Below are positions 10,056-31,270 of a DNA stretch of 32,000 nt, one piece after another. The stretch's first letter is position 1. Each line of letters begins with the position of its first letter. The position numbers were made by a program, and so were the translations under genes. Source of the stretch: Candidatus Electrothrix yaqonensis (GTDB taxonomy: Bacteria > Desulfobacterota > Desulfobulbia > Desulfobulbales > Desulfobulbaceae); NCBI GenBank assembly GCA_047651235.1, contig CP178758.1:2820001-2852000 (forward strand). Direction: 5' to 3'. Under the pieces are notes generated by a model that had not been told where the DNA came from, did not search any database, and worked only from the letters and a program-made list of their open reading frames with translations.

Positions 10056-11210
10056 CTAAAATTTAAGCCTTACCCCGGTCAGTGCAATGGAAATCGGCTC
10101 GTAATCAGCATCACTGCTGTCCTCAAGCTCGAAACCGCGCCAGGCAGCAAACAGCTCGGTATTGTAAGCGGAGATTTTCTGTACCACCTGGACGCCGAAG
10201 GCTGTGCCTTCCTCGCCGGTATTCTGATTTCCGATATTTTCGTACACACCGTAATCCACTGAACAGGCCGTAGCGCCCGGGGAAAAAATCTTGGCCTTGT
10301 AGCCGATTTTTCCGTACATGAAGGTCGGATCATCACCGCCTGCAGGCATGTTGTCCAGGTCGCGGGAGCCTCCGGCAAGGGTGAAGTTCAGGCCGGAACC
10401 GAACAGCACGGACGCGGACCCGTTGATCTGCGTATAATCCTTGTCCTCACCGGGTTCAACATAGGCAAGCGCTGCTTCCAGCTTGGTCTCTCCTATCGTG
10501 CCGGAGTACAGCAGAGCTGCATCGGCCCGCTCCTCTTCTCCGGCAGATACGGCCAAGGTGAACCCACCGAAATTCTGGGTGTCATAACGCAGCCGGTTCC
10601 GTTTGCTCAGACCGTCCATCTGGTCAAAAATATCACTAACCTTCATATAGCTGCTTTTTTCTTCAGTGTCGTCCTCTGCAGTTGCAGCCAAGATTGCTGC
10701 AGCATCATAAAACGTGAACCCGCCGCCGACATCTGCAACACCTGAGTTCCCGGCCAGAGCCGTGCCGGACAAATCCACCTCCGAGGTTTCGTCGGAAGCC
10801 ATGTAGCCCTGTCCCACAGAGATTTTACCGAACCTGTTGATGTCAAAGTACACCTCCATCTTGCGCTCCTTGAGCTTACCGGAGATGCTTTCCTCTTTCA
10901 TGGACACCTTATCCGAAGGATTGGTCTGCCACTGCACTTCAGCATTGCCGCCGATGGTCAGATTTTCGGACGCGGCAACTTTGGCTTTAAGTCCGACCCG
11001 GCTTTCCGAGTGGGTATTGTCCACATGAAAGAGCTTGCTGTCATCACCGTCATCGGCGACCATCACTGCCCGGTCGATGTGCCCGTACAGGTTCAGTCCT
11101 ACTTTGTCATTCCCTGATTTGATCTCCAGTGCCGAGGCTGCAGCAGCACTTCCCAGCAGCAGAGCTCCGGTTGTCAGGGCAACAGCACCGGCTGAATAAC
11201 ACTTTTTCAT
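10056..11210 (-). CDS. outer-membrane porin (general Gram-negative porin type)
   Basis: I moved the start to the ATG at 11210 (MKKCYSAGAVALTTGALLLGSAAAASA signal peptide) because GGAGGG (11216-11221) lies 5 nt upstream. Alternating amphipathic strands, many G/D/N turns and C-terminal ...GVRLKF (terminal Phe) are typical of beta-barrel OMPs. Confidence 0.8.
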   Translation of the reverse strand: MKKCYSAGAVALTTGALLLGSAAAASALEIKSGNDKVGLNLYGHIDRAVMVADDGDDSKLFHVDNTHSESRVGLKAKVAASENLTIGGNAEVQWQTNPSDKVSMKEESISGKLKERKMEVYFDINRFGKISVGQGYMASDETSEVDLSGTALAGNSGVADVGGGFTFYDAAAILAATAEDDTEEKSSYMKVSDIFDQMDGLSKRNRLRYDTQNFGGFTLAVSAGEEERADAALLYSGTIGETKLEAALAYVEPGEDKDYTQINGSASVLFGSGLNFTLAGGSRDLDNMPAGGDDPTFMYGKIGYKAKIFSPGATACSVDYGVYENIGNQNTGEEGTAFGVQVVQKISAYNTELFAAWRGFELEDSSDADYEPISIALTGVRLKF

Positions 11211-11386
11211 TTTTTCCCTCCGACTTTCTTCTTTTGGTTTAGTATACAATCTGAAATCTGCTCACAGCCTGTTGCCTCAAAGCGGACAGCGCTGTTCGTC
11301 TGTTGTTCCCTTGTATAAAAATGATACAACAAGAGAGGCAAAGAAGAAAAGTTTTTTTGTATAATTTTTTTTACCGAACAATAAGA

Positions 11387-14330: not shown

Positions 14331-14477
14331 ACGAGATTGATTGAACTACCTCCCTGACTTTGTTGTCGGGGAGGTTCCATGTACCTGAGCAACAGAGATT
14401 GAGTGATGATTGAACAGCTTGAAATCAAAAACTTTAGAGGAATTGAGCAGTTTAAAATTGATAATATTGGTCAGGTT
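14258..14477 (+). repeat. direct repeat copy A (valS 3' end + hairpin + 5' end of ATPase gene)
   Basis: Aligns with 16160-16381. It includes a 43-nt identical core GCAACAGAGATTGAGTGATGATTGAACAGCTTGAAATCAAAAA (14389-14431 = 16291-16333). Overall roughly three quarters identical by eye. Confidence 0.9.
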
Positions 14478-15515
14478 AACCTCCTGGTCGGCACAAACAA
14501 CAGTGGAAAAACATCAATTTTAGAGGCTATTCGTTTGCTCAAATCAGAAGGAAATTCATATGATTTCCTTTCAGTCCTGCTTCAACGAGGTGAAAGAATT
14601 CAAAAAGAATCCGATAGACGTCAAATAGACGGGGACTTATGCAGGCTTTTTTATGGTTTTGAACTGAATTCAACTTCCAATTTTTCCATTAAGGGAGGAG
14701 GCGAAAAGCAGAACGAGGGAATATCAGCTTCCGTGAAAGAAATTCCTGTCCAGTCTGAAGTTTTTGAAAAAGACCCTGACTTTTCAGGCCAGTATCAATT
14801 TGATATTCGTTGGAAAAAAGGAAACGAAGAAATTCATCAAGATATTCCTGTCAGCTTGGACGGAGGACTGTCCTATGATTATATAAGAAGGAAACTCCGT
14901 CTTAAGGCAGGGCCAACAAAAGAGAACAATCTTGAATTTGTACCAACCTCTTCATTGTCATCTCATGAAGTTATCGCTTTATTTGACAGAGTAATCCTGA
15001 CACCTGATGAAGAACTTGTACTGGATGCATTAAGAATCATTGAGCCTGATATTACTCGTCTTGCTTCGCTTGGAGGAGGAGCTCGATATTATCCTTTACG
15101 TTCGGGAGACTATGACCGTGGCGGTCTTTTTGTCAAAAGCAGCAAATGGGAAAAAAGAATTCCCATCGGAAGTTTTGGTGACGGTATCTGGCGGTTGCTG
15201 GGACTGATTTTATCCTTGGTCGGAGCAAAAAACGGCACCTTGCTGGTTGATGAAATCGATACCGGCCTACACCACACCGTTATGTCCAAGATGTGGAAGC
15301 TGATTTGCATCACCGCAAAAAAACTCAACGTGCAAGTCTTTGCCACCACCCACAGCAGCGACTGCTGGAAAACGCTGGCCGACAATGCGGTTGAAGATGA
15401 ATTTGCCGACATGCCCATCCGTATCCATCGGATTGATAAAAACAAAATCCGACCGGAAACCTTTACCAATACGGAGATGCACCTTGCCCTAGATCAGGAA
15501 ATAGAGGTTCGCTAG
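14403..15515 (+). CDS. ABC/OLD-type AAA ATPase (AAA_15/AAA_21-like)
   Basis: N-terminal IEQLEIKNFRGI, Walker A GTNNSGKTS, Walker B/D-loop TLLVDEIDTGLH, H-loop FATTHSSD. Start is GTG 14403 or ATG 14406. Confidence 0.85.
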   Translation: MMIEQLEIKNFRGIEQFKIDNIGQVNLLVGTNNSGKTSILEAIRLLKSEGNSYDFLSVLLQRGERIQKESDRRQIDGDLCRLFYGFELNSTSNFSIKGGGEKQNEGISASVKEIPVQSEVFEKDPDFSGQYQFDIRWKKGNEEIHQDIPVSLDGGLSYDYIRRKLRLKAGPTKENNLEFVPTSSLSSHEVIALFDRVILTPDEELVLDALRIIEPDITRLASLGGGARYYPLRSGDYDRGGLFVKSSKWEKRIPIGSFGDGIWRLLGLILSLVGAKNGTLLVDEIDTGLHHTVMSKMWKLICITAKKLNVQVFATTHSSDCWKTLADNAVEDEFADMPIRIHRIDKNKIRPETFTNTEMHLALDQEIEVR

Positions 15516-15516
15516 G

Positions 15517-16200
15517 ATGGCCCGTCAACATGAGAAGGTTCTTTTGGTTGAAGGAGCGGAAGACCAGCGGGTTATTCCTGAGCTTGTTGAGGCAAATGGA
15601 ATTCAGTGGGGCGAAAAAGAAAAAGACTGGATTGTTCAGATTAAATCCCTGAACGGTGTAGAAAAACTTTTGGATAAAGAACGGATCAATGTCCAGCTGA
15701 AGGCGTCAGGATTGAAAATTCTCGGCATCATCCTTGATGCGGACGATGAGCCTGCTGACCGTTGGCAGAGCATACGCAACTGTCTGCTTGAACGATATCC
15801 GGATATTCCGGAAGAATTACCCGCAACCGGCCTGATCCATCCCGGTGAAATCAAAATCGGCGTTTGGATGATGCCGGACAATCAACAACAGGGAATGCTG
15901 GAGACCTTTCTCCAATTTCTCCTACCTGAAGACGACAAAGAGCTTTGGGAGTTTACCGAGCAGAGTTGCAGGCAGGCCACCAACTACGGAGCGTCTTACA
16001 AAGAACCCCATCTGGATAAAGCAAAAATCCATACTTGGCTGGCATGGCAGAATCCTCCGGGACGGCAGCTGCATAACGCGGTCATGGAACGCATTCTCTC
16101 GCCGACTTCGCCGCAGGCAGCCTCTTTCATGCAGTGGTTTCAGAAATTATTTGAGGTTACAGCAACAGGAGATGCCGGAGACCCGGCTGGTGAAAAATGA
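15517..16200 (+). CDS. small Toprim-like protein (DUF3226/DUF4276/DUF4435-type), partner of the ATPase
   Basis: The ATG is 1 nt after the ATPase stop. KVLLVEGAEDQRVIPELV (Toprim Glu) and KILGIILDADDEP (DxD) lie ~60 aa apart. Family assignment is from motif memory, not from a search. Confidence 0.6.
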   Translation: MARQHEKVLLVEGAEDQRVIPELVEANGIQWGEKEKDWIVQIKSLNGVEKLLDKERINVQLKASGLKILGIILDADDEPADRWQSIRNCLLERYPDIPEELPATGLIHPGEIKIGVWMMPDNQQQGMLETFLQFLLPEDDKELWEFTEQSCRQATNYGASYKEPHLDKAKIHTWLAWQNPPGRQLHNAVMERILSPTSPQAASFMQWFQKLFEVTATGDAGDPAGEK

Positions 16201-18046: not shown

Positions 18047-18640
18047 AGTAATTCCTCTCTTGTAAAATTTTTTATTTTATAACAGCGCCCCAAAAAAGAA
18101 AAATATTCTTTCAAGCTTTGCTGAAGTAAACGGAATAATCGTAATCAGTTAGTTTGGGTGGCAAAGGCTGATAAGCTGCTGCAAAAACCGCAGAAAAGTA
18201 TGTACAATAATTCTGCTAAACAGACAACATAAAAAGTATCGTCGGGAGTGTAATGCGGTTGTACTTGTAGAGATGCAGGAACAGGCATACCGGAAGGGCC
18301 TTGCGGAGGGAACCCGCAGACGCCGTCCGGGAGGCGGCAAAAAGGGCGCCCTGCCTGCCGAACCAGGAACCGGGAAGCTGCTCACGGTTGAACTTGAGCA
18401 TGGAAACCTCGACCGCCATTTCTAGGAATTTCCCTTTCAGGCTGTTGATCAGCCCCCGCTGACTCAGGTCGATTTCGTCCACACTGCTCAAGCCTGTTTC
18501 CAGCCTGTCCGGCTGTATATTTTCGGTGGAGAAAGGCGGGGAATTCAGTTATGGTGAGGAATTTATAGAACTCAAGCAAAATAATCCCTCATCCCGCGCC
18601 TATCCGGGGTGAGACAACAACAGATGAAAGAGAGCAATCA

Positions 18641-19480
18641 ATGGATACAGAAAGCTTTTTGCAGGAAAATCAAGAAAATCTCAACAACATCCTCCGACCC
18701 TTTCAAAAAGAGATCAACCGTGGTCAACGGCTGGCTGATTTTCTCAAACAATGTGTGCGTTGCTTGGGTCGTAATGATTTTCTGCAACTGGAAGAGCTGT
18801 TAAACTCCAAGATAGCGCAGAACGTGGAAGACGAAGATGCCTTGAGCGAGTGCGGGCCTCTTTTCCAGACCCTGCGGGAATATGCCGGGGAACAGGTGGA
18901 GAAATATCGCTTTGCGTTTATCGAAGACCTTTCCCGGCTGGCCGAAGAGGCCGAGTTGCCCATTGAAATTGATTTCCCCCGTTTCACCGTGCTCAAAGGC
19001 ATTGAGGGGGAGATTGATTTCAGTAAGCGTACCACCTCCATCAATAAAAAAGTCCTCAAATCCATTGATCCCCGCCGCATTGTCACTGCAGCCCTACGCT
19101 GGAAAAAGCAGCTCTATGATGGTCCCTTTGATCCCCAGACCTTTGTAGACGGTCTGTACGCAACCTATACAAAGATCAATCAACAGGAGGATGCAGCACC
19201 AGGGCATCCAGTGGGGATTCAGCAGTTTTACCTGGAATATGTGATTTCCCTGCAAAGCAAAGCATTTTTCATCAATATGGATAAGAGCAAATTTCGGGGT
19301 TACAGCCTGGAGCAGTTCGGTGTGGATCTGTGGCGATATTTTGAAGCAGGTATCGGCGGCACCTCTGATGGTATGATGTTGCAGCTGCGGCCAGGGCGCA
19401 ACAATTCCCTGTGGCTGATCGACAGTGATGGTGAACGCCGCCAGATTACCGGAATTTCCTTTCAGGAGAGAGCGATATGA
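18641..19480 (+). CDS. hypothetical protein (gene A of three-gene NTPase operon), no recognisable motif
   Basis: 279-aa ORF with an AG-rich RBS-like stretch (GAAAGAGAG) upstream. Its stop overlaps the next start (ATGA at 19477-19480). Confidence 0.7.
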   Translation: MDTESFLQENQENLNNILRPFQKEINRGQRLADFLKQCVRCLGRNDFLQLEELLNSKIAQNVEDEDALSECGPLFQTLREYAGEQVEKYRFAFIEDLSRLAEEAELPIEIDFPRFTVLKGIEGEIDFSKRTTSINKKVLKSIDPRRIVTAALRWKKQLYDGPFDPQTFVDGLYATYTKINQQEDAAPGHPVGIQQFYLEYVISLQSKAFFINMDKSKFRGYSLEQFGVDLWRYFEAGIGGTSDGMMLQLRPGRNNSLWLIDSDGERRQITGISFQERAI

Positions 19481-20766
19481 AGAGTATGGAAGAGCTGGGG
19501 CAGCTAAAGCCCTTCCAGGCCCGCTCTATTATTGAGGAGTTACGCAAAGGCAGTGTTCCGGCGGAGTATGTCCCGTTTTTCACGGTGGGCCGCGATAATT
19601 GGCTCACCTTTATCGAAGATGACCTGGCCAATTACATTGCCGAAGGCGGGGCCAAAGTCCGCTTTCTCAGTGGCGATTACGGGGACGGTAAGACCCATTT
19701 CATGTCAGTCATCCAACACCTTGCCCTGCAGGAAGGTTTTGGTGTCTCCTTTGTGGTCCTGACCCGGGAAACACCGATTCATAAGTTTGAGGCGGTCTAC
19801 CAAGCCATTACCCAACAGCTTCATGGTCGTTTTGAGGGCATCGGTATCCGCAATCTCTTACGGCAATGGTTGGAGACTCTGGCTGAAAAAGAAGAACCCT
19901 CCCTTGCCCAACTGGCTGATATGGCAGAGACCCTACGCAACCTTCCGGGTATGAACATCAACTTTGCCAACGCCCTCACTGCTCTGGCCCATAATCGCTT
20001 TGTGCCCTTGGAAGAGGGCGAGGAGCAGGAAGAACGAGATACTGCGCAGGAAATTATCTTTCACTGGTTTGAGGGCGGCAAGGTGACCAAGCGCGAGTTG
20101 AAACCATTCGGAATTTTTGAGGTGGTCAACAAATCCAACAGCAAGCAATTGCTCAATTCCCTGAATGTTTTTCTGCGCCATTTTGGACACAAGGGCTTGA
20201 TCCTGTTGCTTGATGAACTGGAAACCGTCATTGCCCAGTCTGCTTCCATGCGCAACGCAGCCTATGAAAATGTGCGCCTGCTCATCGACAACTCCGAACA
20301 TGCGGAATATTTTCATATCTTTTTCTCCATTATCCCTGACGTGCTGCTCTCGGAAAAGGGCTTTAAATCCTATGATGCCCTGTGGAGCCGGGTACGCAGC
20401 ATCGGCCAGAAGAAACAACTCAACTACCGGGGCGTGCTGATTGATCTGCATCGCACCCCCTTGACCAGTCAGGAGCTGATAGAGCTGGGCCGCTGTTTAC
20501 GCCGGATTCACGAGATATCCTATCGCTGGAAAGCTGAGGATTCAGTGCCGGACAAGCTGCTGGAGGATGTCTGCACAAATCAGGAAAAGATGGGCCTGCT
20601 CAGTGAGGTGCGCCTATTCATCAAACAGCTCATCAGCATTCTTGATATGGCGGAACAGGGCGAAACACCGACGGAAGAGCTTGATCTTGAGCAGCACGTC
20701 GTGTCCAGCCAGCAGGAAATGGATCAGGAAAAAGTGGAACAACTGCAACCGAGCTGGGATAAGTAA
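19477..20766 (+). CDS. BrxD/DUF2791-type P-loop NTPase (BREX ATP-binding-domain family), gene B
   Basis: N-terminal ARSIIEELRKGSVPAEYVPFFTVGRD, Walker A GDYGDGKTH, Walker B GLILLLDELE. Family call is from motif memory. Confidence 0.8.
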   Translation: MKSMEELGQLKPFQARSIIEELRKGSVPAEYVPFFTVGRDNWLTFIEDDLANYIAEGGAKVRFLSGDYGDGKTHFMSVIQHLALQEGFGVSFVVLTRETPIHKFEAVYQAITQQLHGRFEGIGIRNLLRQWLETLAEKEEPSLAQLADMAETLRNLPGMNINFANALTALAHNRFVPLEEGEEQEERDTAQEIIFHWFEGGKVTKRELKPFGIFEVVNKSNSKQLLNSLNVFLRHFGHKGLILLLDELETVIAQSASMRNAAYENVRLLIDNSEHAEYFHIFFSIIPDVLLSEKGFKSYDALWSRVRSIGQKKQLNYRGVLIDLHRTPLTSQELIELGRCLRRIHEISYRWKAEDSVPDKLLEDVCTNQEKMGLLSEVRLFIKQLISILDMAEQGETPTEELDLEQHVVSSQQEMDQEKVEQLQPSWDK

Positions 20767-20769
20767 GCC

Positions 20770-22014
20770 ATGAGTAAGGATATGCCAGCCTTTGTCCAGC
20801 TCCTGGAAAAGGCAGATAATTTTACCTTGCGACGGGCCGTGGAACGGTTGCGGGAGGGCCTGTTTGATCCTTTTGGGGTGAGCCTGCTCACTGCCCGTGA
20901 GAGCCAGTTGAACAAGGTTTTTGATCAGGGTGCGCAGGATGTAGCCAAAAACAAGAGCACCCATCTCTGCGTCTGCGGCTCCTATGGTCAGGGAAAATCC
21001 CATAGCCTGACCTATCTGCGCCAACGGGCCCTGCAACAGGGTTTTGCAGTCAGCTCGATCAATCTTGACCCCAGGGAAGTGCCCCTGCACGACTTTCACC
21101 AGGTCTATCGTGCTCTGGTGAACCAGATTGCCTTTCCTGACAGCGATGACTCGCTGGTCAAGGTCTGGGAGCAATGGACCAAAGAAGGGTATAAACAACA
21201 GCTCAAAGGCAAAAAGGCTGATCCCCTCTCAGTTATTCCTGACTGTATGCCCCATGTCTTCAAAGCCGTGCTTACGGCCCTGGCGAACGATAATATGCAG
21301 CTTTCCAGGCGGCAAAAAGGCTTGAAAAAACATGCTGCTTTCCGGCCCCGGTAATTTCCCTGGATTCTGACCAATGCCCTGAACGGAAATTCGCCGCCCG
21401 TGGTTCGTCTCAGACAGGCCCTGAAATATCGGGAGGTTTCCTTTTACAAGGAGCAATCCCTGGTGTGCAAGGGCTGGGAGCCGTATTTTGCTCTGGTCAG
21501 AGGACTGGGACTCATGTTTCAGCAGATGGGTTATAAGGGTTGGGTGCTGCTGTTTGATGAGGCAGAAGCCATTGCCCAGACCCGAATTAATCTGCGCCGC
21601 AAAAGCTACGCCATTTTACAACGCTTTTTTTGCCCGGATACGCCGTTAAACGGCCTTTATCCGGTCTTTTCCTTTACCGATGATTTTTTTTCCACGGTCA
21701 AAGGGGAGGATTACGACCGGGTGGATACTCGCGGTGAAACGGAGCAACCCTATTTCGCGGAAAACTATGCCAGGGCCTGGCGTCGCCTCAATATCCATAA
21801 TCTGCACGATCTGTCCAGTCTGGAGTGGCAAGCTCTGGCTGAAAAGTTGATTTATGTACATGGCAAAGCCTATGCCTGGCAAGCGGAACCGAAGCAACTC
21901 CAAAGACAGCTGGCTGCCACGCTCAAGGAAACAGGTTTGCGTGAGGCCCGTTTGAAGATAAAGGCGTTGGTTAATCAATTGGATTTTGTTCAGCAGGGGG
22001 TTGTGCTGGGGTGA
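20770..22014 (+). pseudogene. second BrxD/DUF2791-type P-loop NTPase (gene C), interrupted by one in-frame TAA at 21352-21354
   Basis: ORFs 20770-21354 and 21400-22014 are in the same frame, and the 45 nt between them are open (FPWILTNALNGNSPP). Walker A GSYGQGKSH lies before the stop and Walker B WVLLFDEAE after it. Paralogous to gene B. Confidence 0.75.
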
Positions 22015-22284
22015 GAGAGATACATCAGCAGCGATACGTTATGACTTTTACGGATCAATTTCCCCATGCCGTTGAAGTCTAATCCGTTTTTTTCGCCGCA
22101 AGCGGCGGGGTATTAAAAACCCAAGGCTTCGCAATAAAAGTTTAACCGCCATCAGCGGAATCGATATATACTGTCCCCCGGATAAAGCTGAGCTTTTGGC
22201 ACCCTGGATATCTAACTGATTTCACAAGATTGAATTTGAGCAAAAGAATTTAAATTTTTTCCGGTGCCGAGTATACAAAAGATA

Positions 22285-22322
22285 TTGACAAAAGGTTGTC
22301 TTTTGTTTAATCATATGATTAA
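22285..22322 (+). promoter_or_regulatory. putative arsR-family promoter with operator palindrome
   Basis: TTGACA at 22285-22290. Perfect 16-bp palindrome TTAATCATATGATTAA at 22307-22322, overlapping the expected -10 position, ~40 bp upstream of the ArsR-family ATG. Confidence 0.45.
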
Positions 22323-22360
22323 TAAGTTAATTTATAAAACAACTAATCAGAGAGAGGATA

Positions 22361-22645
22361 ATGGATAATCAAGTCAATGATCTCGCCCTGCTGCTCAAAT
22401 CCATCTCCCATCCCATCCGGCTGAAAATCCTCTGCCTGCTTCAGGAGGGAGAGTTGTCAGTCAGTGCAATTCGGGAAAATGTGGAGACCAGCGGGGCAAA
22501 TATCAGCCAGCATCTGAACATTATGCGCAACCAGGGTATTATTGCTTCCCGGAAGGAGGCAAATTTTATCTACAACCGGATTGCGGATGAGCGGGTTCTT
22601 GAGTTAATGAAGACTATGCGGCAGTTGTTCTGCAGCATCGCCTGA
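22361..22645 (+). CDS. ArsR/SmtB-family transcriptional regulator
   Basis: Winged-HTH signature LLKSISHPIRLKILCLL...LSVSAIRENVETSGANISQHLNIMRNQGII. GAGAGAGGA RBS. Confidence 0.9.
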   Translation: MDNQVNDLALLLKSISHPIRLKILCLLQEGELSVSAIRENVETSGANISQHLNIMRNQGIIASRKEANFIYNRIADERVLELMKTMRQLFCSIA

Positions 22646-22725
22646 GCAGATGTCGGCATTCGGCATGAAGAGGTAAACAGCCCTGATTTTCAGGGACAGA
22701 ACATATTCAAAAACAGGAGGCAATC

Positions 22726-25356
22726 ATGCAGCTATCCAGCAGAGCAATTCAGTTTTCTTTGCACAAACCTCGGGTGGTGACCGCCGTTATGGTGCTGTTC
22801 ACCCTGATCATCGGGGCCTTTATTGTCCGGGTGCATGTGGACACCGACCCGGAGAACATGCTGTCCGAGCATGAGGCGGTGCGCGTCTTTCACGATCAGA
22901 CCAAGAAGGAGTTCGGTCTGTATGACGTGGTGGTGCTGGGGGTGGTCAACGAGCATAACCCGGACGGGGTGTTCAATCCGGAAACCCTGCAGCGGGTCTC
23001 CACCCTGAGTAAATTCGCCGCTACCTTGGCTGATCCTGAGGATCCGGCACGCAGGGTGGTCAGCCGGGACATCATTGCCCCGGATAATGTGGATAATATC
23101 CTCCAGGCCGGGCTGGGGCAGGTGCGCTTTGAATGGTTGATGAAAGAGCCGCCCAAGACCAGAGAGGATGCCCTGAAGATCCGTGATGCCGCCCTGAACA
23201 ACCCTCTGCTTAAAGGGACAATGGTTTCGGAAGACGGAAAAGCCCTGGGGATTTATCTGCCCATCACCAAGAAGGATTTCGCCCATTCCTTGGCTGAACA
23301 ACTGAAAGAAAAAATTGCTGAAATCGGCGCGGGTGATGACGAGTTTCACATCACCGGTTTGCCCGTGGCCGAGGATACCTTTGGCAAGGAGATGTTTGTC
23401 CAGATGGCGGTGTCAGCACCACTTGCTATGCTCATGGTTTTCCTGCTCATGCTCTTTTTCTTTCGTAATCTCCAGCTGATCATCGCCCCGATGATCATTG
23501 CCGTGTGTACGGTGATTGTCACTATGGGGATGCTCATCGGAACCGGCCACACCTTGCACATCATGAGTTCCATGATTCCGATTTTCATCATGCCCATTGC
23601 AGTGGTGGATTCGGTCCATATTTTATCGGAATTTTTTGATGCCTATCAGCAGCGCAAAAACCGAAAAGAGACCCTGATTGAGGTCATGAGGCATCTGTTC
23701 AAGCCCATGCTCTTCACCTCACTGACCTCTTCTGCCGGGTTTGCTTCTCTGGCCTTTACCCCGATCCCACCGGTACAGGCATTTGGTATCTTTGTTGCCC
23801 TGGGTATTCTGCTGGCTTGGTTCCTGACCATTGTTTTTGTTCCGGCATACGTGATGATGATGAAGGAAGAAAGCCTGGAGAATTTCGGAGCAGGTGCAAC
23901 AGAGTCCCATGAAAATTCTCCGCTCAACCGTCATCTGCGCTGGATCGGTAAAACCTCCTCCGGCAAGCCCTGGCTGGTCATCGGTGTGAATATTGGCATC
24001 ATGGTTATCGGTGTAATTGGTATCTTCATGATTCAGGTTAATGACAACCCGGTCAAGTGGTTCAAGAAGAGCCATGAAATCCGGGTGGCGGACCGGATAC
24101 TGAACAGTCATTTCGGCGGAACCTACGAAGCCTATCTGGTATTGAAGGGCAATGTGCAGGAGATGAGCGTTGCCCAGGCAGCTACGCAGTTGAAAGAAAA
24201 ACTTCAATCCTCCTTGCAGGAATCTCCGGCAATCCTGACCTCTGCACTGGAGGATATTAAACAGGAAGCTGCGGACAGAAAAACCGTTGCTGGCTTCAAA
24301 GACGCCTTGGCCCAGCTCTGGAATATGGAACTTGACAATGCCCCGGAAGACGATGATACTGTCTATTATTCATGGGAAAAAGCTTTGGACACCCTGCCAG
24401 GAATAGGCAGTCAGAAAGAGGTATTCAAGCGGCCTGATGTGTTGCGCTATATCTCTGATCTGGATGATCATCTGGTCAAATCAGGTGATGTAGGAAAGTC
24501 CAACACGATTGCCGATGTGGTAAAAAAGGTGCATATGGAGCTCTTCGAGGGTGATCCGCAGCGCTTTTCCATCCCGGACTCGGTCAATGCTGTGGCCCAG
24601 ACCCTGATTTCCTTTCAGAACAGTCATAAGCCCGATGACCTTTGGCATTTAGTCACACCGGATTACACCAAGGCCAATATCTGGTTGCAGTTACGCAGCG
24701 GCGACAACAAGGATATGGAGCGGGTGATTGAGGAAGTGGAGCAGTATTTTGCGGCAAATCCGCCACCAGTGGAAATGAGCCATGACTGGGCCGGGCTGAC
24801 CTACATCAACGTGGTCTGGCAGGACAAAATGGTTACCGGAATGCTGGAATCCTTTCTCTCCAGTTTTGCGGTGGTCTTCCTGATGATGGCCTTCCTGTTC
24901 CGCTCACCGACCTGGGGCTTGCTGGCCATGGTGCCGCTGACCTTTACCATAGGCTTTATCTACGGCGTGATCGGCCTGATCGGCAAGGATTACGACATGC
25001 CGGTGGCCGTGCTCTCCTCGCTGGCCCTGGGACTGGCTGTGGACTTTGCTATCCACTTCCTCCAGCGCACCAGAATGACTATGGCGAAGACCGGAGATTG
25101 GGCCGCAGCTATCCGGGATATGTTTGATGATCCTGCTCGGGCCATCCTGCGCAATATCATTGTTATCGCCATCGGCTTTACCCCACTGCTGCTGGCACCG
25201 CTGGTTCCCTATCAGACCGTGGGTATCTTCCTGGCCACGATCATGTTCTACTCCGGCTTTGCCACTTTGTGGATTCTTCCGGCCCTGTTGACGGTGATGA
25301 AGGGTTGGGTGTTTAAGAAGGAATTGAAGGCTTTTGCTGAGAAGGGTGAGGGGTGA
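22726..25356 (+). CDS. MMPL/RND-superfamily exporter (HpnN-like)
   Basis: 876 aa with two 6-TM bundles separated by large periplasmic loops. Typical RND/SSD segments (FFRNLQLIIAPMI..., SMIPIFIMPIAVVDSVHIL and LSSLALGLAVDFAIHFLQR). AGGAGG RBS. Confidence 0.88.
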   Translation: MQLSSRAIQFSLHKPRVVTAVMVLFTLIIGAFIVRVHVDTDPENMLSEHEAVRVFHDQTKKEFGLYDVVVLGVVNEHNPDGVFNPETLQRVSTLSKFAATLADPEDPARRVVSRDIIAPDNVDNILQAGLGQVRFEWLMKEPPKTREDALKIRDAALNNPLLKGTMVSEDGKALGIYLPITKKDFAHSLAEQLKEKIAEIGAGDDEFHITGLPVAEDTFGKEMFVQMAVSAPLAMLMVFLLMLFFFRNLQLIIAPMIIAVCTVIVTMGMLIGTGHTLHIMSSMIPIFIMPIAVVDSVHILSEFFDAYQQRKNRKETLIEVMRHLFKPMLFTSLTSSAGFASLAFTPIPPVQAFGIFVALGILLAWFLTIVFVPAYVMMMKEESLENFGAGATESHENSPLNRHLRWIGKTSSGKPWLVIGVNIGIMVIGVIGIFMIQVNDNPVKWFKKSHEIRVADRILNSHFGGTYEAYLVLKGNVQEMSVAQAATQLKEKLQSSLQESPAILTSALEDIKQEAADRKTVAGFKDALAQLWNMELDNAPEDDDTVYYSWEKALDTLPGIGSQKEVFKRPDVLRYISDLDDHLVKSGDVGKSNTIADVVKKVHMELFEGDPQRFSIPDSVNAVAQTLISFQNSHKPDDLWHLVTPDYTKANIWLQLRSGDNKDMERVIEEVEQYFAANPPPVEMSHDWAGLTYINVVWQDKMVTGMLESFLSSFAVVFLMMAFLFRSPTWGLLAMVPLTFTIGFIYGVIGLIGKDYDMPVAVLSSLALGLAVDFAIHFLQRTRMTMAKTGDWAAAIRDMFDDPARAILRNIIVIAIGFTPLLLAPLVPYQTVGIFLATIMFYSGFATLWILPALLTVMKGWVFKKELKAFAEKGEG

Positions 25357-25363
25357 TACGGTG

Positions 25364-25412
25364 GAGGTTTTCCCGGCAGCATTCCGGTACAGGGTGTTGT
25401 CGGGAGAGCCTC
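25364..25412 (+). other. long-stem hairpin after the exporter gene
   Basis: GAGGTTTTCCCG (25364-25375) pairs with CGGGAGAGCCTC (25401-12), 12 bp including two G-U pairs. It shares the TTGTCGGGAG motif with hairpins at 14348 and 16252. No U tract. Confidence 0.35.
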
Positions 25413-25460: not shown

Positions 25461-26072
25461 ATGAAAATAGAACAGATAGTCGGAGAAATATGGATTTACC
25501 TGGTTAAAAATATAGATTGGTTATTTAGCGGGACTGGTGTATTTCTTATTGCTTACCTTGGTTCTTTGATTGCTTCAAATTTTCTCAAGCAAAGTCGTCA
25601 AGTAAACGATACAATCAGCTCTTCGGTAGTCCCTGAAGACGTTGACAATCTTTCCAGACTTCTTGTTCAAAATTTTCAAGTATTAAATCGTTATTATTCG
25701 GAAAATCTTTCCCAGGCACGCACAAGTACAATGGCAAGTCTTTCTATTGCGATTCTTGGATTTCTCGTAATCCTCGCTGGCGTACTAATAACTTTTATAG
25801 GAGATCAGGTGGTTTTGGGTACAGTTAGTTCTGGCGCAGGAATTGTATCCGAAGCAGCAGCGTTACTTTTTTTTAAACAAAACAAGTTGTTTCAAGAGCA
25901 AATGCAAAATTCTCTAAAGAAGCTTGTTTCAACCCAATATCTAATGACCTCTGTTGCTCTTGCTCGTGAACTTCCAGAAGAACAACGGTCAAAAGAACTT
26001 GTATCTATAAATGACCACTTGAGGCAATTAATGGACGTTCTTCATCAGGAGGACATTGTTCGTACAAAATAA
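25461..26072 (+). CDS. hypothetical membrane protein in a low-GC islet
   Basis: A 203-aa ORF in clearly AT-richer DNA, where long ORFs are unlikely by chance. Hydrophobic segments WLFSGTGVFLIAYLGSLIA, MASLSIAILGFLVILAGVLITFI and VSSGAGIVSEAAALLFF. No obvious RBS. Confidence 0.6.
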   Translation: MKIEQIVGEIWIYLVKNIDWLFSGTGVFLIAYLGSLIASNFLKQSRQVNDTISSSVVPEDVDNLSRLLVQNFQVLNRYYSENLSQARTSTMASLSIAILGFLVILAGVLITFIGDQVVLGTVSSGAGIVSEAAALLFFKQNKLFQEQMQNSLKKLVSTQYLMTSVALARELPEEQRSKELVSINDHLRQLMDVLHQEDIVRTK

Positions 26073-26592: not shown

Positions 26593-27930
26593 CTATTTTT
26601 TCCCGCAGTCGCTCTGGGCGCTTGAGGTAATAATGGATTTTCTCTCCGCCTTGGTAATCAGACCCGCCTTGAACTGTGTCCTTGCTGCGCGCACGACACA
26701 TTTCATATACTGACCATGGTTTTTCCAGTCATTATCACATGGGCATTCAGCATCCACAGAAGGTTCTTCCACAACAGGCTCATCCGTAGGAGGATCTTCC
26801 ACAACAGGTTCGTCTACTACTACTACAGGCTCATCCGTAGAAGGTGCAACCCCGGGTGTATATACAGTCCGTTCCGGGAAAACCTCTCCGGCCCATTCGG
26901 TGGCGTGACAGAATTTGGTGCCGTTGACCTCAAGTTCGAGCATAAAAGGATTCGCGCCAAGCACACTCTCGTCAATGTCAACATCACGCTCTATGAATAT
27001 GACACAGAGTTCCGTTGAAAGCCGGCAGGTTATTTTTTCCTCTCCGTCTCCGACCACTCTGTGAAAGCTCATCCTGTTGCCCTCGACCATGCCTGTGCCG
27101 CTGAAGCTGTAGGCAATGCCGGCTGGAGTCATAACAGAGAAGTCCAAGTCAACAGGGCCAGGTGCTGCAGCATCACCGAGACCGGTCAGACCGGTCATTT
27201 TGAATCTGGCATGATCCTGATCCCCGTGTCCAGGAGTTGTATCAATGGTGATCTGGCCGTATTCAAGGGATGCACTGACATCGCAGACACAGGCGTCATC
27301 CTGGTCCGGATTCGGTATATACGGGCAGTTGTCCTCATCATCCGGTATCAGATCCGCGTCGGTATCAAGTTTAAGGCTGACAGCGTCAAGCAGCATACCA
27401 AGCTGATCATCCGGCCCGACTTCCGCAAAGGCGATGTCGGTCATGTCGGTTTCAGCCATAAATCCGTAGGTTCCATCTCTCCAGTCGATAGCTCCTGATG
27501 CTCCGGAAGCTGTGTGGTAACCGACAACTTCGTCATCAACCAGCACCTCCATCTGATTATCCCCTACTCCTGGGCGTGGTGCCCAAGCGTATCTCAGTAC
27601 ATAACTCTTCCCCGCCTGTGTGACAGCATCCTGTGAAATCCTTGTCGGATCGTAGCTGTCCAGCTCCACATGCTGGTCACCGCTGTAGGGAGACGGCTTC
27701 AGGTTATGCCAGATTTCCAGCAGAGGGTCCTTCTCGTTGCCGTCCGCAAAAGTATGCTCGATAGTCCATCCGGGTACGCTGCTATATGAGCCCCATCCAC
27801 CGGACCTCGCCGGAAGCTCAAAATCTCCGTTCTCGATTAATTCCTGGCTAAATGCCGGAGCGGCTGAAAGGCTGAGTCCCAGTAAAATGCCTGCGGCGAC
27901 TGTTCCTGTTGCGTGTATTCTTGTTTTCAT
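26593..27930 (-). CDS. secreted multidomain protein (N-terminal lectin/DUF642-like domain, thrombospondin type-3 repeat, acidic Pro-rich linker, Cys-containing helical C-terminus)
   Basis: GGAGGAG RBS. Signal peptide MKTRIHATGTVAAGILLGLSLSAAPAFS. NGDFELP...VPGWT...GDQHVELDS. TSP3-like DTDADLIPDDEDNCPYIPNPDQDD. C-terminal CPCDNDWKNHGQYMKCV. Confidence 0.8.
   Translation of the reverse strand: MKTRIHATGTVAAGILLGLSLSAAPAFSQELIENGDFELPARSGGWGSYSSVPGWTIEHTFADGNEKDPLLEIWHNLKPSPYSGDQHVELDSYDPTRISQDAVTQAGKSYVLRYAWAPRPGVGDNQMEVLVDDEVVGYHTASGASGAIDWRDGTYGFMAETDMTDIAFAEVGPDDQLGMLLDAVSLKLDTDADLIPDDEDNCPYIPNPDQDDACVCDVSASLEYGQITIDTTPGHGDQDHARFKMTGLTGLGDAAAPGPVDLDFSVMTPAGIAYSFSGTGMVEGNRMSFHRVVGDGEEKITCRLSTELCVIFIERDVDIDESVLGANPFMLELEVNGTKFCHATEWAGEVFPERTVYTPGVAPSTDEPVVVVDEPVVEDPPTDEPVVEEPSVDAECPCDNDWKNHGQYMKCVVRAARTQFKAGLITKAERKSIITSSAQSDCGKK
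26766..26844 (-). repeat. imperfect tandem repeats encoding the (T)DEPVV(E) linker
   Basis: CTTCCACAACAGGCTCATCCGTAGG / CTTCCACAACAGGTTCGTC / ACAGGCTCATCCGTAGAAGG read on the plus strand. Protein: PSTDEPVVVVDEPVVEDPPTDEPVVEEP. Confidence 0.7.
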
Positions 27931-28387: not shown

Positions 28388-29371
28388 TCAGTTGTCCTTT
28401 CTGTACTTGGTCCAGGAGCCGCTGCCGCTGTCAACCTGTGTCCACTCGCCTGTGTTGAGGTACAGATTTCCCCCGACCTCAAGGCTCACGTTCATTTCTC
28501 CGGTGAGCTGCGCGTCAAGCGCATCTCCGTCAAGATTTGTATAGCGGAGCTGGACAGTACATAACTCGGTGTCGAATTTACAGCGTACCAACGTAACGTC
28601 GTCACTGTAGACCAGTCTGTTGCCGCCCACATCAAGCTCGTTACTGTCTGCGGTAAAGGTGATCAGGGTATCGCCAGCTTCAGCGGTGAACGTCAGGCCT
28701 GTGCCGTTGTCCACAGCATCTTGGGCAGCAGCACCGATCCCTTCCATTCCCTGCAGGCTGAAGGCCGCCATATCCCGATCATACACAAAATTTTTGATAA
28801 CGATCTGACCGGTTGTATCCATCGGAATGGCAATTCGGGACAGTGATATCTGCAGCTCGTAGCTGTCACCGATATCTGGTGCATTGCCGGTTACACCACC
28901 TGTGTTATCGTAATCATAGGAGTTGAATTCACCAACAGCGATAATGTAGGTGCCTGGTTCCAAGAAGGTATATTCAAGAAATGAAGCCAAGAAATTTGAG
29001 CCGGGGTCTCCCCAGTTGTCATCGTTATAGGCGAGCAAGTTGCCGTTGGAGTCATACAGGAATAATTCGGTATCGAAATTATTATGGTCGGTATCAAATA
29101 CGCTGGCAGTCGTTCCTGCCAGAGACACATCAAAAGAATAATAATCAAACGTGCCGTCACCTGTGCCCGCAATGGATACCCAAGGCCAGATCTCAGAGTT
29201 CGTGATATCCGGATTCAGCCCGACAGTAAACGACGAAATATCAATATGTTGAGCAGTCGCAATACTGTTGTTCGGTTCTGCTTCTGATATAACCGCAGCG
29301 TTGGCTGCTGAAGTGCAGAGCATGATTCCTGCTGTTGCCAAAAGACCTGTTTTTATACTTTGTGCCTTCAT
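28388..29371 (-). CDS. secreted protein with pre-peptidase C-terminal (PPC)-like domain
   Basis: GAGGAG RBS. Signal peptide MKAQSIKTGLLATAGIMLCTSAANA. EAEPNNSIATAQ...GTGDGTFDYYSF...ELFLYDSNGNLLAYNDD, typical of PPC/bacterial collagenase-type accessory domains. Confidence 0.8.
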   Translation of the reverse strand: MKAQSIKTGLLATAGIMLCTSAANAAVISEAEPNNSIATAQHIDISSFTVGLNPDITNSEIWPWVSIAGTGDGTFDYYSFDVSLAGTTASVFDTDHNNFDTELFLYDSNGNLLAYNDDNWGDPGSNFLASFLEYTFLEPGTYIIAVGEFNSYDYDNTGGVTGNAPDIGDSYELQISLSRIAIPMDTTGQIVIKNFVYDRDMAAFSLQGMEGIGAAAQDAVDNGTGLTFTAEAGDTLITFTADSNELDVGGNRLVYSDDVTLVRCKFDTELCTVQLRYTNLDGDALDAQLTGEMNVSLEVGGNLYLNTGEWTQVDSGSGSWTKYRKDN

Positions 29372-30157: not shown

Positions 30158-31270
30158 TCAGGTGGGATATTTTTCCCGCAAATTCAAGGACACAGCTCTG
30201 GTGAGTAGCAGCACTTTTTCTGCGTGGTCCAGGCGGAGCGAACCGGTGCCGCAGCTGGGGGTGATCAGTATCTGGCGGAGCAGAGCCGCCTGATCGCGAT
30301 CCGGGCGGACAAGTTTTTTCACCTGATGCTCCCAGAGCATGGTCAGGGACTGCTCGCTTTCTTTTTCGATATCATAGGGCTTGCCGGTCGGAATACCCCC
30401 CCAGGCGAGAATGGACCCTCGATCAAGATAGGCATGCACCTGATCGGTCAGGGCGGCCAGCTTGTCAAAAAAACTGTAGGCATCAAAGCTGAGAATATCG
30501 ATATCCGAATTGAGGAGCAACCCCCATTCCGTGTTGGCGCAGACATGAAGACCGGCCAGTCCGCCTGCCTGATGGATTGCCCCGGCCACCTCGTTGATCA
30601 TCTCCTGAATTTCCGCATTACTCACCGAGATAAAGGCGGAAGACCCCAGTCCGGCCAGAGCCGGTTCATCAATAAACATGATCACCGGCGTGTTCCCGGT
30701 ATTACAGCAGGCTATGAAGCGGGTCTGCCAAGCTGCCTTCATGGCAATACCCTTAATCACCATTTCCCGGATAGTGTCGTCATAATATCCGGCCCGGCCT
30801 TGGGTATCCTTGATTCCGGTGAGCATGGTGAATGGGCCGGTAACCTGACCTTTCACTGCGGCAAGATTCTCGTTGTGCTGCCCGTTCTGCAGGGTCTCGG
30901 CAAAGCTGTATAGGCCCTCGGCCCGTTCCCGGCTCACCCTGAATCTGGCCTCGGCCGGGGCTTCCGGGTTTTCCAGCACCGCCATGTAATCTTCATAAAA
31001 GGCCAGCATCTGCTCCTCAAAATCAGCTCCGCCGGTATCGTAAAAAATGCGGCCTTCCGGGTCACGCAGGTTTTCTTCCCGGATGCAGGGAATACCCTCG
31101 GCGAACTGAGGCATCATGCCTTCGTAGGGATCGCCCGGCAGTTGGGGCCAGAGGGGAATTTCCGGGGTGGCGGTAAAGATGCGGTCAAGGGCTTCCTTAT
31201 GGTTGCTCAGGGGCAGGGAGCCGATGAGGACAGGAAGGCCGTTGGGGGTGAAGTTGCTGGGCAGTATCAT
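30158..31270 (-). CDS. MetE-like (cobalamin-independent methionine synthase C-terminal domain family) Zn-dependent methyltransferase
   Basis: 370 aa. Zn-ligand pattern HVC (GLAGLHVCANTEW) and a late Cys (ITPSCGTGS), as in the Meth_synt_2/core-MetE fold. Substrate and methyl donor cannot be read from the sequence. Confidence 0.65.
   Translation of the reverse strand: MILPSNFTPNGLPVLIGSLPLSNHKEALDRIFTATPEIPLWPQLPGDPYEGMMPQFAEGIPCIREENLRDPEGRIFYDTGGADFEEQMLAFYEDYMAVLENPEAPAEARFRVSRERAEGLYSFAETLQNGQHNENLAAVKGQVTGPFTMLTGIKDTQGRAGYYDDTIREMVIKGIAMKAAWQTRFIACCNTGNTPVIMFIDEPALAGLGSSAFISVSNAEIQEMINEVAGAIHQAGGLAGLHVCANTEWGLLLNSDIDILSFDAYSFFDKLAALTDQVHAYLDRGSILAWGGIPTGKPYDIEKESEQSLTMLWEHQVKKLVRPDRDQAALLRQILITPSCGTGSLRLDHAEKVLLLTRAVSLNLREKYPT

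Follow-up and report, generated by a model that had tools for sequence, protein, structure and literature searches.

Paired BrxD-like ATPases of Candidatus Electrothrix yaqonensis: very probably one half of a four-gene ATPase-helicase system split in Electrothrix

The window analysed here is a stretch of 32,000 nucleotides from the cable bacterium Candidatus Electrothrix yaqonensis (assembly GCA_047651235.1, contig CP178758.1, positions 2,820,001 to 2,852,000 of the forward strand; genome YB6 in what follows), and positions refer to it unless another sequence is named. Three consecutive genes on its plus strand, A (18641..19480), B (19477..20766) and C (20770..22014), encode a protein in which no known family is detected and two paralogous ATPases of the BrxD/SngB type. 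Very probably, this triad is the ATPase and adaptor half of a conserved four-gene system, A-B-C-H, which usually forms one operon and which has been split in Electrothrix, the fourth gene, H, encoding a large predicted helicase. On the best reading of the sequences, the system would be a new variant of the Shango or BrxD-BrxHI kind of ATPase-helicase defence module, with a duplicated ATPase and a novel protein in place of the TerB protein.

A fourth gene linked to the triad

The position of H was sought by tblastn in 80 loci, one per species genome, 58 of which had enough flanking sequence to be informative. H adjoins the triad in 50 of these 58 loci, being located directly after C in 44 and directly before A, on the same strand, in 6; it lies 7 kb downstream of C in one more and is absent from the available flanks in 7, and in the other 22 loci the contig is too short to place it. 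Cultured bacteria that carry the four-gene operon intact include Desulfobacter curvatus DSM 3379 (L057), D. vibrioformis DSM 8776 (L082), D. latus AcRS2 (L060) and Desulforhabdus sp. TSK (L055). The triad itself recurs as a tightly linked unit across the loci of different species, which agrees with a first-pass annotation of the window. The same annotation had described the triad as a stand-alone system without a helicase, and this part is not borne out, since H is its usual neighbour and is kept intact elsewhere in Electrothrix.

H is 1,888-2,102 amino acids long. Its first 700 residues match the PADLOC profiles of BrxHI (3.4e-87) and SngC (6e-72), both in full, whereas its C-terminal ~450 residues correspond to an AAA_11/AAA_12 helicase of superfamily 1 (SF1) with DpdJ and MkoA matches in PADLOC; the Pfam domains detected are DEAD, Helicase_C, AAA_11 and AAA_12. 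From these matches, the N-terminus is predicted to be a BrxHI/SngC-type (Lhr/Ski2-like) helicase of superfamily 2 (SF2), and the C-terminus a DNA2/Upf1-like SF1 helicase. The middle part contains conserved GIPDLIR, GDIK and QVAFY motifs and a CxxCx5C cluster, with some members matching Pfam Cas_Cas4 or PDDEXK_1, and it reads as a Cas4/RecB-type PD-(D/E)xK nuclease with a cysteine cluster. Joining such a nuclease to an SF1 helicase resembles the DNA2, AddAB, AdnAB and RecBCD type of enzyme, and together with the SF2 motor it would give H two motors and one nuclease. H differs from those enzymes, however, in being a single polypeptide and in having ORC/Cdc6-like ATPases as partners, and the likeness is one of generic helicase and nuclease domains.

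A cassette consisting of A, two BrxD-like ATPases and a BrxHI-type helicase was not found described in PADLOC 2.0, Pfam, NCBIfam or the literature searched. The suggestion of an undescribed architecture in the first-pass annotation therefore stands for the four-gene cassette, but not for a helicase-free form, since H belongs to it.

The two ATPases

The junctions of the three genes were read directly from the sequence. The stop of A (ATA-TGA) overlaps the start of B (ATG-A) in the ATGA at 19477-19480, and B and C are joined as TAA-GCC-ATG, that is, with a 3-nt gap. The product of gene A (279 aa in the table of open reading frames, ORFs) is 100% identical to NCBI protein ACL93V_13250. Gene B encodes an acidic AAA+ ATPase of 429 aa with Walker A GDYGDGKT and Walker B LLLDELE, and gene C, of 414 codons, its basic paralogue, with Walker A GSYGQGKS and Walker B LLFDEAE; in YB6, C carries a nonsense codon, and in the ORF table it appears as two same-frame ORFs (20770-21354 and 21400-22014). 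The coordinates and coupled junctions quoted in the first-pass annotation were confirmed, all its motifs are present in the translations, and its assignment of B and C to paralogous NTPases of the BrxD/DUF2791 type was upheld by the following searches.

Both proteins match Pfam PF10923 (BrxC_BrxD, formerly DUF2791; gathering score 22.2 bits), B over residues 14-397 (1.9e-58, 198.8 bits) and C in two stretches (5.3e-28, 98.5 bits), with AAA_16, ATPase_2 and AAA_22 as secondary Pfam matches of the ATPases. In PADLOC, B matches BrxD (1.5e-44) and SngB (5.4e-35, with the SngB profile covered in full), and C matches the same two profiles at 9.7e-26 and 6.5e-12. Neither reaches the cutoff of the BrxD equivalog of NCBIfam, NF033438 (350 bits), the scores being 150.6 bits for B and 89.7 bits for C. 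A sequence search of the PDB with B gave no relative, and the ORC/Cdc6 class ascribed to B and C is carried over from the classification of BrxD (PMC12839542).

B aligns over its full length with an intact orthologue of C at 25% identity (E 3e-23), which indicates that B and C are paralogues. The Walker A (GxxxxGK[ST]) and Walker B (hhhhDE) motifs are invariant across 79 orthologues of B and 69 of C. The median isoelectric point across the family is 5.6 for B and 9.3 for C, and this constant pairing of an acidic with a basic paralogue suggests a B/C heteromer with divided roles. Between YB6 and E. gigas, the ratio of non-synonymous to synonymous substitution rates (dN/dS) is 0.059 for A, 0.041 for B and 0.117 for C, and 0.096 for the neighbouring MMPL gene. 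A survey of local features around the cassette (flanking repeats, promoters, terminators and Rfam families) rendered nothing informative.

Protein A

Protein A had been singled out in the first-pass annotation as a partner without recognisable motifs, and it bears this out: it has no match in Pfam, PADLOC or NCBIfam, and scans of 83 family members including A against Pfam and PADLOC gave no family match for its 82 relatives either. The AlphaFold2 model of A (predicted local distance difference test score, pLDDT, 96; predicted template modelling score, pTM, 0.83) begins with a helical hairpin of ~100 aa, continues with a beta-meander of five strands and closes with a C-terminal module of helices followed by three strands. 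In Foldseek searches, the full-length model found no match below E 0.04 in PDB and BFVD, nor did a second model of the globular part (residues 104-279, pLDDT 96) in PDB. Tandem winged-helix proteins (Stn1, ORC subunits, Cdt1, ESCRT-II) recur in the Foldseek lists of A at E ~1-5 and probability <=0.3, insignificant values that make them a lead only. A search of PDB sequences with the profile of the A family returned coiled-coil noise alone. A would thus represent a well-folded protein family outside Pfam, without a significant fold match in the PDB by Foldseek.

The family is useful as a marker of the system across Desulfobacterota, Latescibacterota and beyond. There are 383 close homologues, 58-96% identical to A and found mainly in these two phyla, and a search of 1.8 billion representative proteins rendered 130 related clusters at 50% identity, many of them full-length although just 20-30% identical.

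Split of the system in Electrothrix

In Electrothrix, H has moved away from A-B-C by insertions and rearrangements and has nevertheless been kept intact. In the closest relative of the window (locus L009), whose A is 96% identical, H lies 285 bp after C. Full-length orthologues of H, 76-82% identical to that of L009, are present in many Electrothrix genomes, among them GW3-4, communis, aarhusensis, gigas, scaldis and YB6. The YB6 copy (P0255, 2,009 aa) is intact and is located on the same 3.74-Mb chromosome, outside the window, where its neighbours are tetrapyrrole methylase genes; tblastn detected neither H nor a remnant of it in the window, including the sequence after C. The presence of an intact H elsewhere in Electrothrix indicates that the window holds one half of a split, Shango-like four-gene system rather than a helicase-free architecture.

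The distance between C and H is 0.3 kb in L009, where the genes are adjacent, 7 kb in L013 and 22.6 kb in GW3-4, a series that looks like progressive separation by insertion. In the closed genome of GW3-4 (CP147990.1), C ends at ~2,970,328 and H, encoded on the same strand, begins at 2,992,937. Those ends of the interval for which sequence was available (L005 and L098) contain a full-length Ppl defence gene (1.6e-155), an SLFN/AlbA_2-like gene, AAA_14/DUF4143 (PDC-S01) genes, a TIR-WD40 gene, PDDEXK_2 genes and a PhD-PIN pair. It seems that a defence island has built up within the split system.

Nucleotide homology of the window with other Electrothrix loci is confined to a block on the plus strand at 18606..22015, which comprises A, B and C with no more than 35 bp before them and which is 84-92% identical by blastn to L005, L007 and L009-L013. 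No nucleotide match to the flanks of the YB6 triad, upstream or downstream, was found in the other Electrothrix loci.

The arsR-MMPL block that follows the triad (window 22307-25403) is common to E. gigas (L007, 2200-5286), with 81.6% nucleotide identity. In E. gigas, however, the block flanks A-B-C on the opposite side and is inverted relative to it, which indicates that the triad or its surroundings were locally inverted or re-inserted; the triad is better conserved (89%) than this block. Two loci (L026, 2264-4428, and L042, 593-2695) have A and B followed by opposite-strand genes, without C or H, which indicates that the cassette can break between B and C too. One of these two belongs to Desulfococcaceae HSG8, in which a homologue of H (P0295) lies on another contig.

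A nonsense codon in gene C of YB6

Codon 195 of C in YB6 is an in-frame TAA (21352..21354, plus strand), located between Walker A and Walker B, and it is the sole stop within the 414 codons. The codon is GAA (Glu) in L009, L005 and L007, the TAA being found only in YB6, and other Electrothrix genomes have an uninterrupted C of 414 aa. An assembly error was considered and rejected, since the TAA is also present in SRR31704081 and SRR31704082, two independent assemblies of reads which match the window at 100% identity; this indicates that the mutation is real. Given its position between the two Walker motifs, the change from GAA to TAA has probably left the YB6 copy impaired or in early decay. 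Private changes in the part of C after the stop amount to 5 non-synonymous and 7 synonymous on the YB6 branch, compared with 8 and 53 in the other three lineages together (Fisher p = 0.03, on small counts), a ratio that fits a recent inactivation of C. The corresponding numbers on the YB6 branch are 2:7 for A and 1:17 for B, which are still constrained.

It could also be the case that the YB6 copy is a decaying remnant which has no function at present, the nonsense codon having inactivated the whole complex. This explanation, which applies to the YB6 copy alone and does not conflict with the four-gene system proposed above, comes close to an even call. It would account for a stop that is both real and private to YB6 and for the private changes after it, few as these are. 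The constraint on A and B on the same branch, the intact H and the lack of any frameshift or deletion do not agree with it, however, and a GTG at 21400 opens a second half of 204 aa, so that the two halves could in principle be made apart and reassemble. In either case, the YB6 copy, split from its helicase and carrying a nonsense mutation, is of less interest than the system itself.

Distant relatives and distribution

A profile of distant A relatives returned three proteins, ~20-29% identical to A, and the genomic context was obtained for all three. Genes of PF10923 follow A' in every case, two of them wherever the contig is long enough. In the first locus (L092/L093), a transposase gene is followed by A', B' and C', with 0.8 kb left downstream; in the second (L094/L095), A' lies beside conjugation genes (TrwC and a coupling protein) and one PF10923 gene starts before the contig ends; in the third (L096/L097), A', B' and C' are accompanied by a helicase of 715 aa that matches BrxHI (5.6e-90) and SngC (1.5e-84, full profile). 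The module of A with two ATPases is thus old, and its minimal form is likely to be A, two BrxD-like ATPases and a plain BrxHI-like helicase. The plain helicase of the third locus suggests that the nuclease and SF1 extension of H is specific to the clade of the window.

The distribution is patchy, with 124 hits in 185,579 species genomes. A of Electrothrix is 74% identical to that of Desulfobacteraceae Eth-SRB1, 65% to those of Latescibacterota and 61-64% to those of Desulfocapsa, values at odds with taxonomy that imply horizontal transfer. One triad, whose A is also 74% identical to that of Electrothrix, is found on a 3.9-kb contig binned as Promethearchaeota (L019); in all likelihood the contig was misbinned and does not represent an occurrence in archaea.

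Comparison with Shango and BREX

Shango is a system protective against phages whose components, the TerB-like SngA, the ATPase SngB and the DEAD/DEAH helicase SngC, are listed in this sequence for the PA14 locus of P. aeruginosa (PMC10250203). BrxD is an ORC/Cdc6-type AAA+ ATPase, tightly linked with BrxHI, and has been proposed to load or activate this helicase (PMC12839542). The cassette described here resembles both and, by the profile matches available, is a member of neither.

With Shango it shares the order of a small non-enzymatic protein, a PF10923-type ATPase and an Lhr/Ski2-like SF2 helicase, as well as the matches of B to SngB and of the helicases in related loci to SngC given above (5.4e-35, and 6e-72 and 1.5e-84 over the full profile, respectively). 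It differs from Shango in that TerB, TerB_N and TerB_C were not found in A or its 82 relatives (Pfam, E <0.01), in the presence of two ATPases, diverged to 25% identity, where Shango has a single one, in the extension of the helicase by ~1,200 aa (Cas4/RecB-like nuclease plus SF1 helicase) in the clade of the window, and in the separation of the helicase gene from the triad in YB6, where no SngC-type gene is located in the window.

With the BrxD-BrxHI pair of type-2 BREX/Pgl it shares a stand-alone ATPase of the ORC/Cdc6 class and a BrxHI-type helicase (B to BrxD, 1.5e-44; H to BrxHI, 3.4e-87). It differs in the duplicated ATPase, in the extra protein A, in the fusion of the helicase to a nuclease and a second motor, and in the bit scores of B and C, far below the NCBIfam cutoff for BrxD. 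As regards BREX as a whole, PglZ, BrxC/PglY, PglX and PglW were not found in the window ORFs scanned or in the gene-annotated related loci. The failure of the tests for TerB, for BREX core genes and for the BrxD equivalog is what sets the cassette apart from Shango, BREX and BrxD proper. The alternative raised in the first-pass annotation, that the triad is a decayed fragment of a complete BREX or Shango-type locus, is borne out in part, in that the triad belongs to a split Shango-like four-gene system, although this cassette is never accompanied by TerB or by a core gene of BREX.

Possible function of the system

By analogy with its relatives, a role of the four-gene system in defence against phages or plasmids is somewhat favoured. 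The reasons are the homology of its components to BrxD/SngB and BrxHI/SngC, the patchy and taxonomically incongruent spread, the location of one member on a conjugative element, and the variable flanks, which are rich in toxin-antitoxin, integrase and defence genes; DUF4143/AAA_14, PIN, integrase, HipA, Fic and SLFN are the families that recur there.

Several points weigh against a defence role or against the novelty of the system. Neither the family nor the modelled fold of A gives a clue to function. No close relatives of A were found in the viral-contig and plasmid collections, and in six genomes of Latescibacterota the cassette shows a stable synteny with TonB/ExbBD, MFS and sulfatase genes. 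The cassette has been kept in many Electrothrix species in spite of its split and is under strong purifying selection, which, like its housekeeping neighbours in Latescibacterota, would also fit a housekeeping role in DNA processing. A helicase next to the triad is missing in eight informative loci and in L092, one of the distant triads. Moreover, PADLOC 2.0 dates from 2023, so that the system may have been named later.

The main rival to defence is a housekeeping machine for DNA-end processing or repair, in which H would be a single-chain dual-motor helicase-nuclease and A-B-C an ORC/Cdc6-like loader or regulator acting on the host chromosome. The synteny in Latescibacterota and the lack of close relatives in viral contigs and plasmids would be expected of it, and so would the low dN/dS values (0.04-0.12), the identity of A across phyla (at least 58%) and the maintenance of both halves, intact, in many Electrothrix species despite their separation; in addition, H joins two motors of different helicase superfamilies to one nuclease, a layout comparable to that of RecBCD or AdnAB. 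Nonetheless, we regard a repair role as unlikely. A machine of this kind would not be expected in so few species genomes (124 of 185,579), with identities that conflict with taxonomy and point to horizontal transfer, or in flanks that are unrelated even between Electrothrix species and in which defence and toxin-antitoxin genes recur. The only recognisable relatives of the proteins, BrxD/SngB and BrxHI/SngC, come from defence systems, and YB6 tolerates a nonsense mutation in C.

If the system serves in defence, a mechanism can be tentatively proposed from the analogy with BrxD-BrxHI and Shango, namely that A-B-C acts as an ATP-dependent sensor and loader for H. A, B and C would assemble as an ATP-driven heteromeric complex that recruits H to foreign or damaged DNA or activates it there, the unwinding and degradation of the target being left to H. 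A more specific proposal, which is rather doubtful, is that A-B-C would be a bacterial heteromeric loader of the ORC/Cdc6 kind, made of two diverged AAA+ subunits, one acidic and the other basic, and an adaptor of novel fold, which senses foreign or broken DNA and loads a dedicated dual-motor helicase-nuclease. If so, immunity would have its own counterpart to the loading of replicative helicases, and the cassette would constitute a defence system new at the level of the family, with Shango and type-2 BREX as relatives but part of neither. The cassette separates the pairing of ATPase and helicase from methylation, PglZ and TerB, and it fuses the helicase to a likely effector nuclease. It could serve, for this reason, as a simpler system in which to test the helicase-loader model that has been proposed in PMC12839542.

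A further alternative is that A-B-C works autonomously, as a helicase-independent system built on a heteromeric pair of BrxD-like NTPases, the neighbouring helicase being an optional accessory. Such autonomy would agree with the seven informative loci without H in their flanks and the eighth with H 7 kb away, with L092/L093, where no helicase is found in the 0.8 kb remaining after C, with the nucleotide homology among Electrothrix loci, which ends exactly at the borders of A-B-C, and with the breaks between B and C in L026 and L042. It appears improbable in view of the 50 of 58 informative loci in which H adjoins the triad. Furthermore, YB6, GW3-4, gigas and aarhusensis, whose triads lack an adjoining H, all contain an orthologue of it (76-82% identical to that of the closest relative), the gaps of 0.3, 7 and 22.6 kb suggest progressive separation, and the deep branch keeps the gene order with a plain BrxHI-like helicase. 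Finally, a decayed BREX fragment was rejected, given that BREX core genes occur in no gene-annotated related locus.

For annotation, it follows from the four-gene system that a "BrxD pair" without a helicase can represent half of a system that has been split, and half-systems such as this triad show that searches limited to one locus can mislead.

Neighbouring genes in the window

The large ORFs of the window with a Pfam match encode Lon, a homocysteine methyltransferase/MTHFR fusion, MetK, AhcY, an L,D-transpeptidase, PhoU, a DsbC-like protein and ArsR. ValS and the MMPL protein were named from their translations, and the E. gigas orthologue of the latter carries the Pfam MMPL domain. The first-pass annotation had seen no gene for PglZ, a methyltransferase, a helicase, TerB or a nuclease next to the triad, and none of these was found, nor one for BrxC, among the scanned ORFs of the 32-kb window, a set that leaves out ValS and MMPL. 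The 594 bp before A (18047-18640), which had been described as decayed-looking, contain short minus-strand ORFs only; they have no Pfam or Rfam match and no likeness to the Electrothrix regions upstream of A, which neither shows nor excludes decay. Two ORFs on the minus strand (10056-11249 and 30158-31270; 397 and 370 aa) match no Pfam family at E <1e-5, and those at 26593-27930 and 28388-29371 carry domains of secreted proteins (TSP_3/DUF642 and PPC, respectively).

A candidate defence pair, PDC-M38A/B, is located at 14403-16200, directly after valS and 2.4 kb upstream of the triad. Its members are an AbiLi/AriA-like ATPase (1.1e-83 in PADLOC) and a partner (6.9e-70), so that the defence-island-like context which the first-pass annotation had seen in this neighbouring cassette is corroborated. 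The GC content of the pair (~0.43-0.48) contrasts with that of valS just upstream (~0.52-0.58) and of the sequence downstream (~0.49), as would be expected of an inserted element. Beyond the triad, 3.4 kb downstream of C, the MMPL gene is followed by a stretch of low GC (0.41-0.45) in which an ORF at 25461-26072 encodes a protein of 203 aa that matches Pfam PF20712 (cyanobacterial TRADD-N-associated, two-transmembrane; 5.3e-15), a domain associated with conflict systems.

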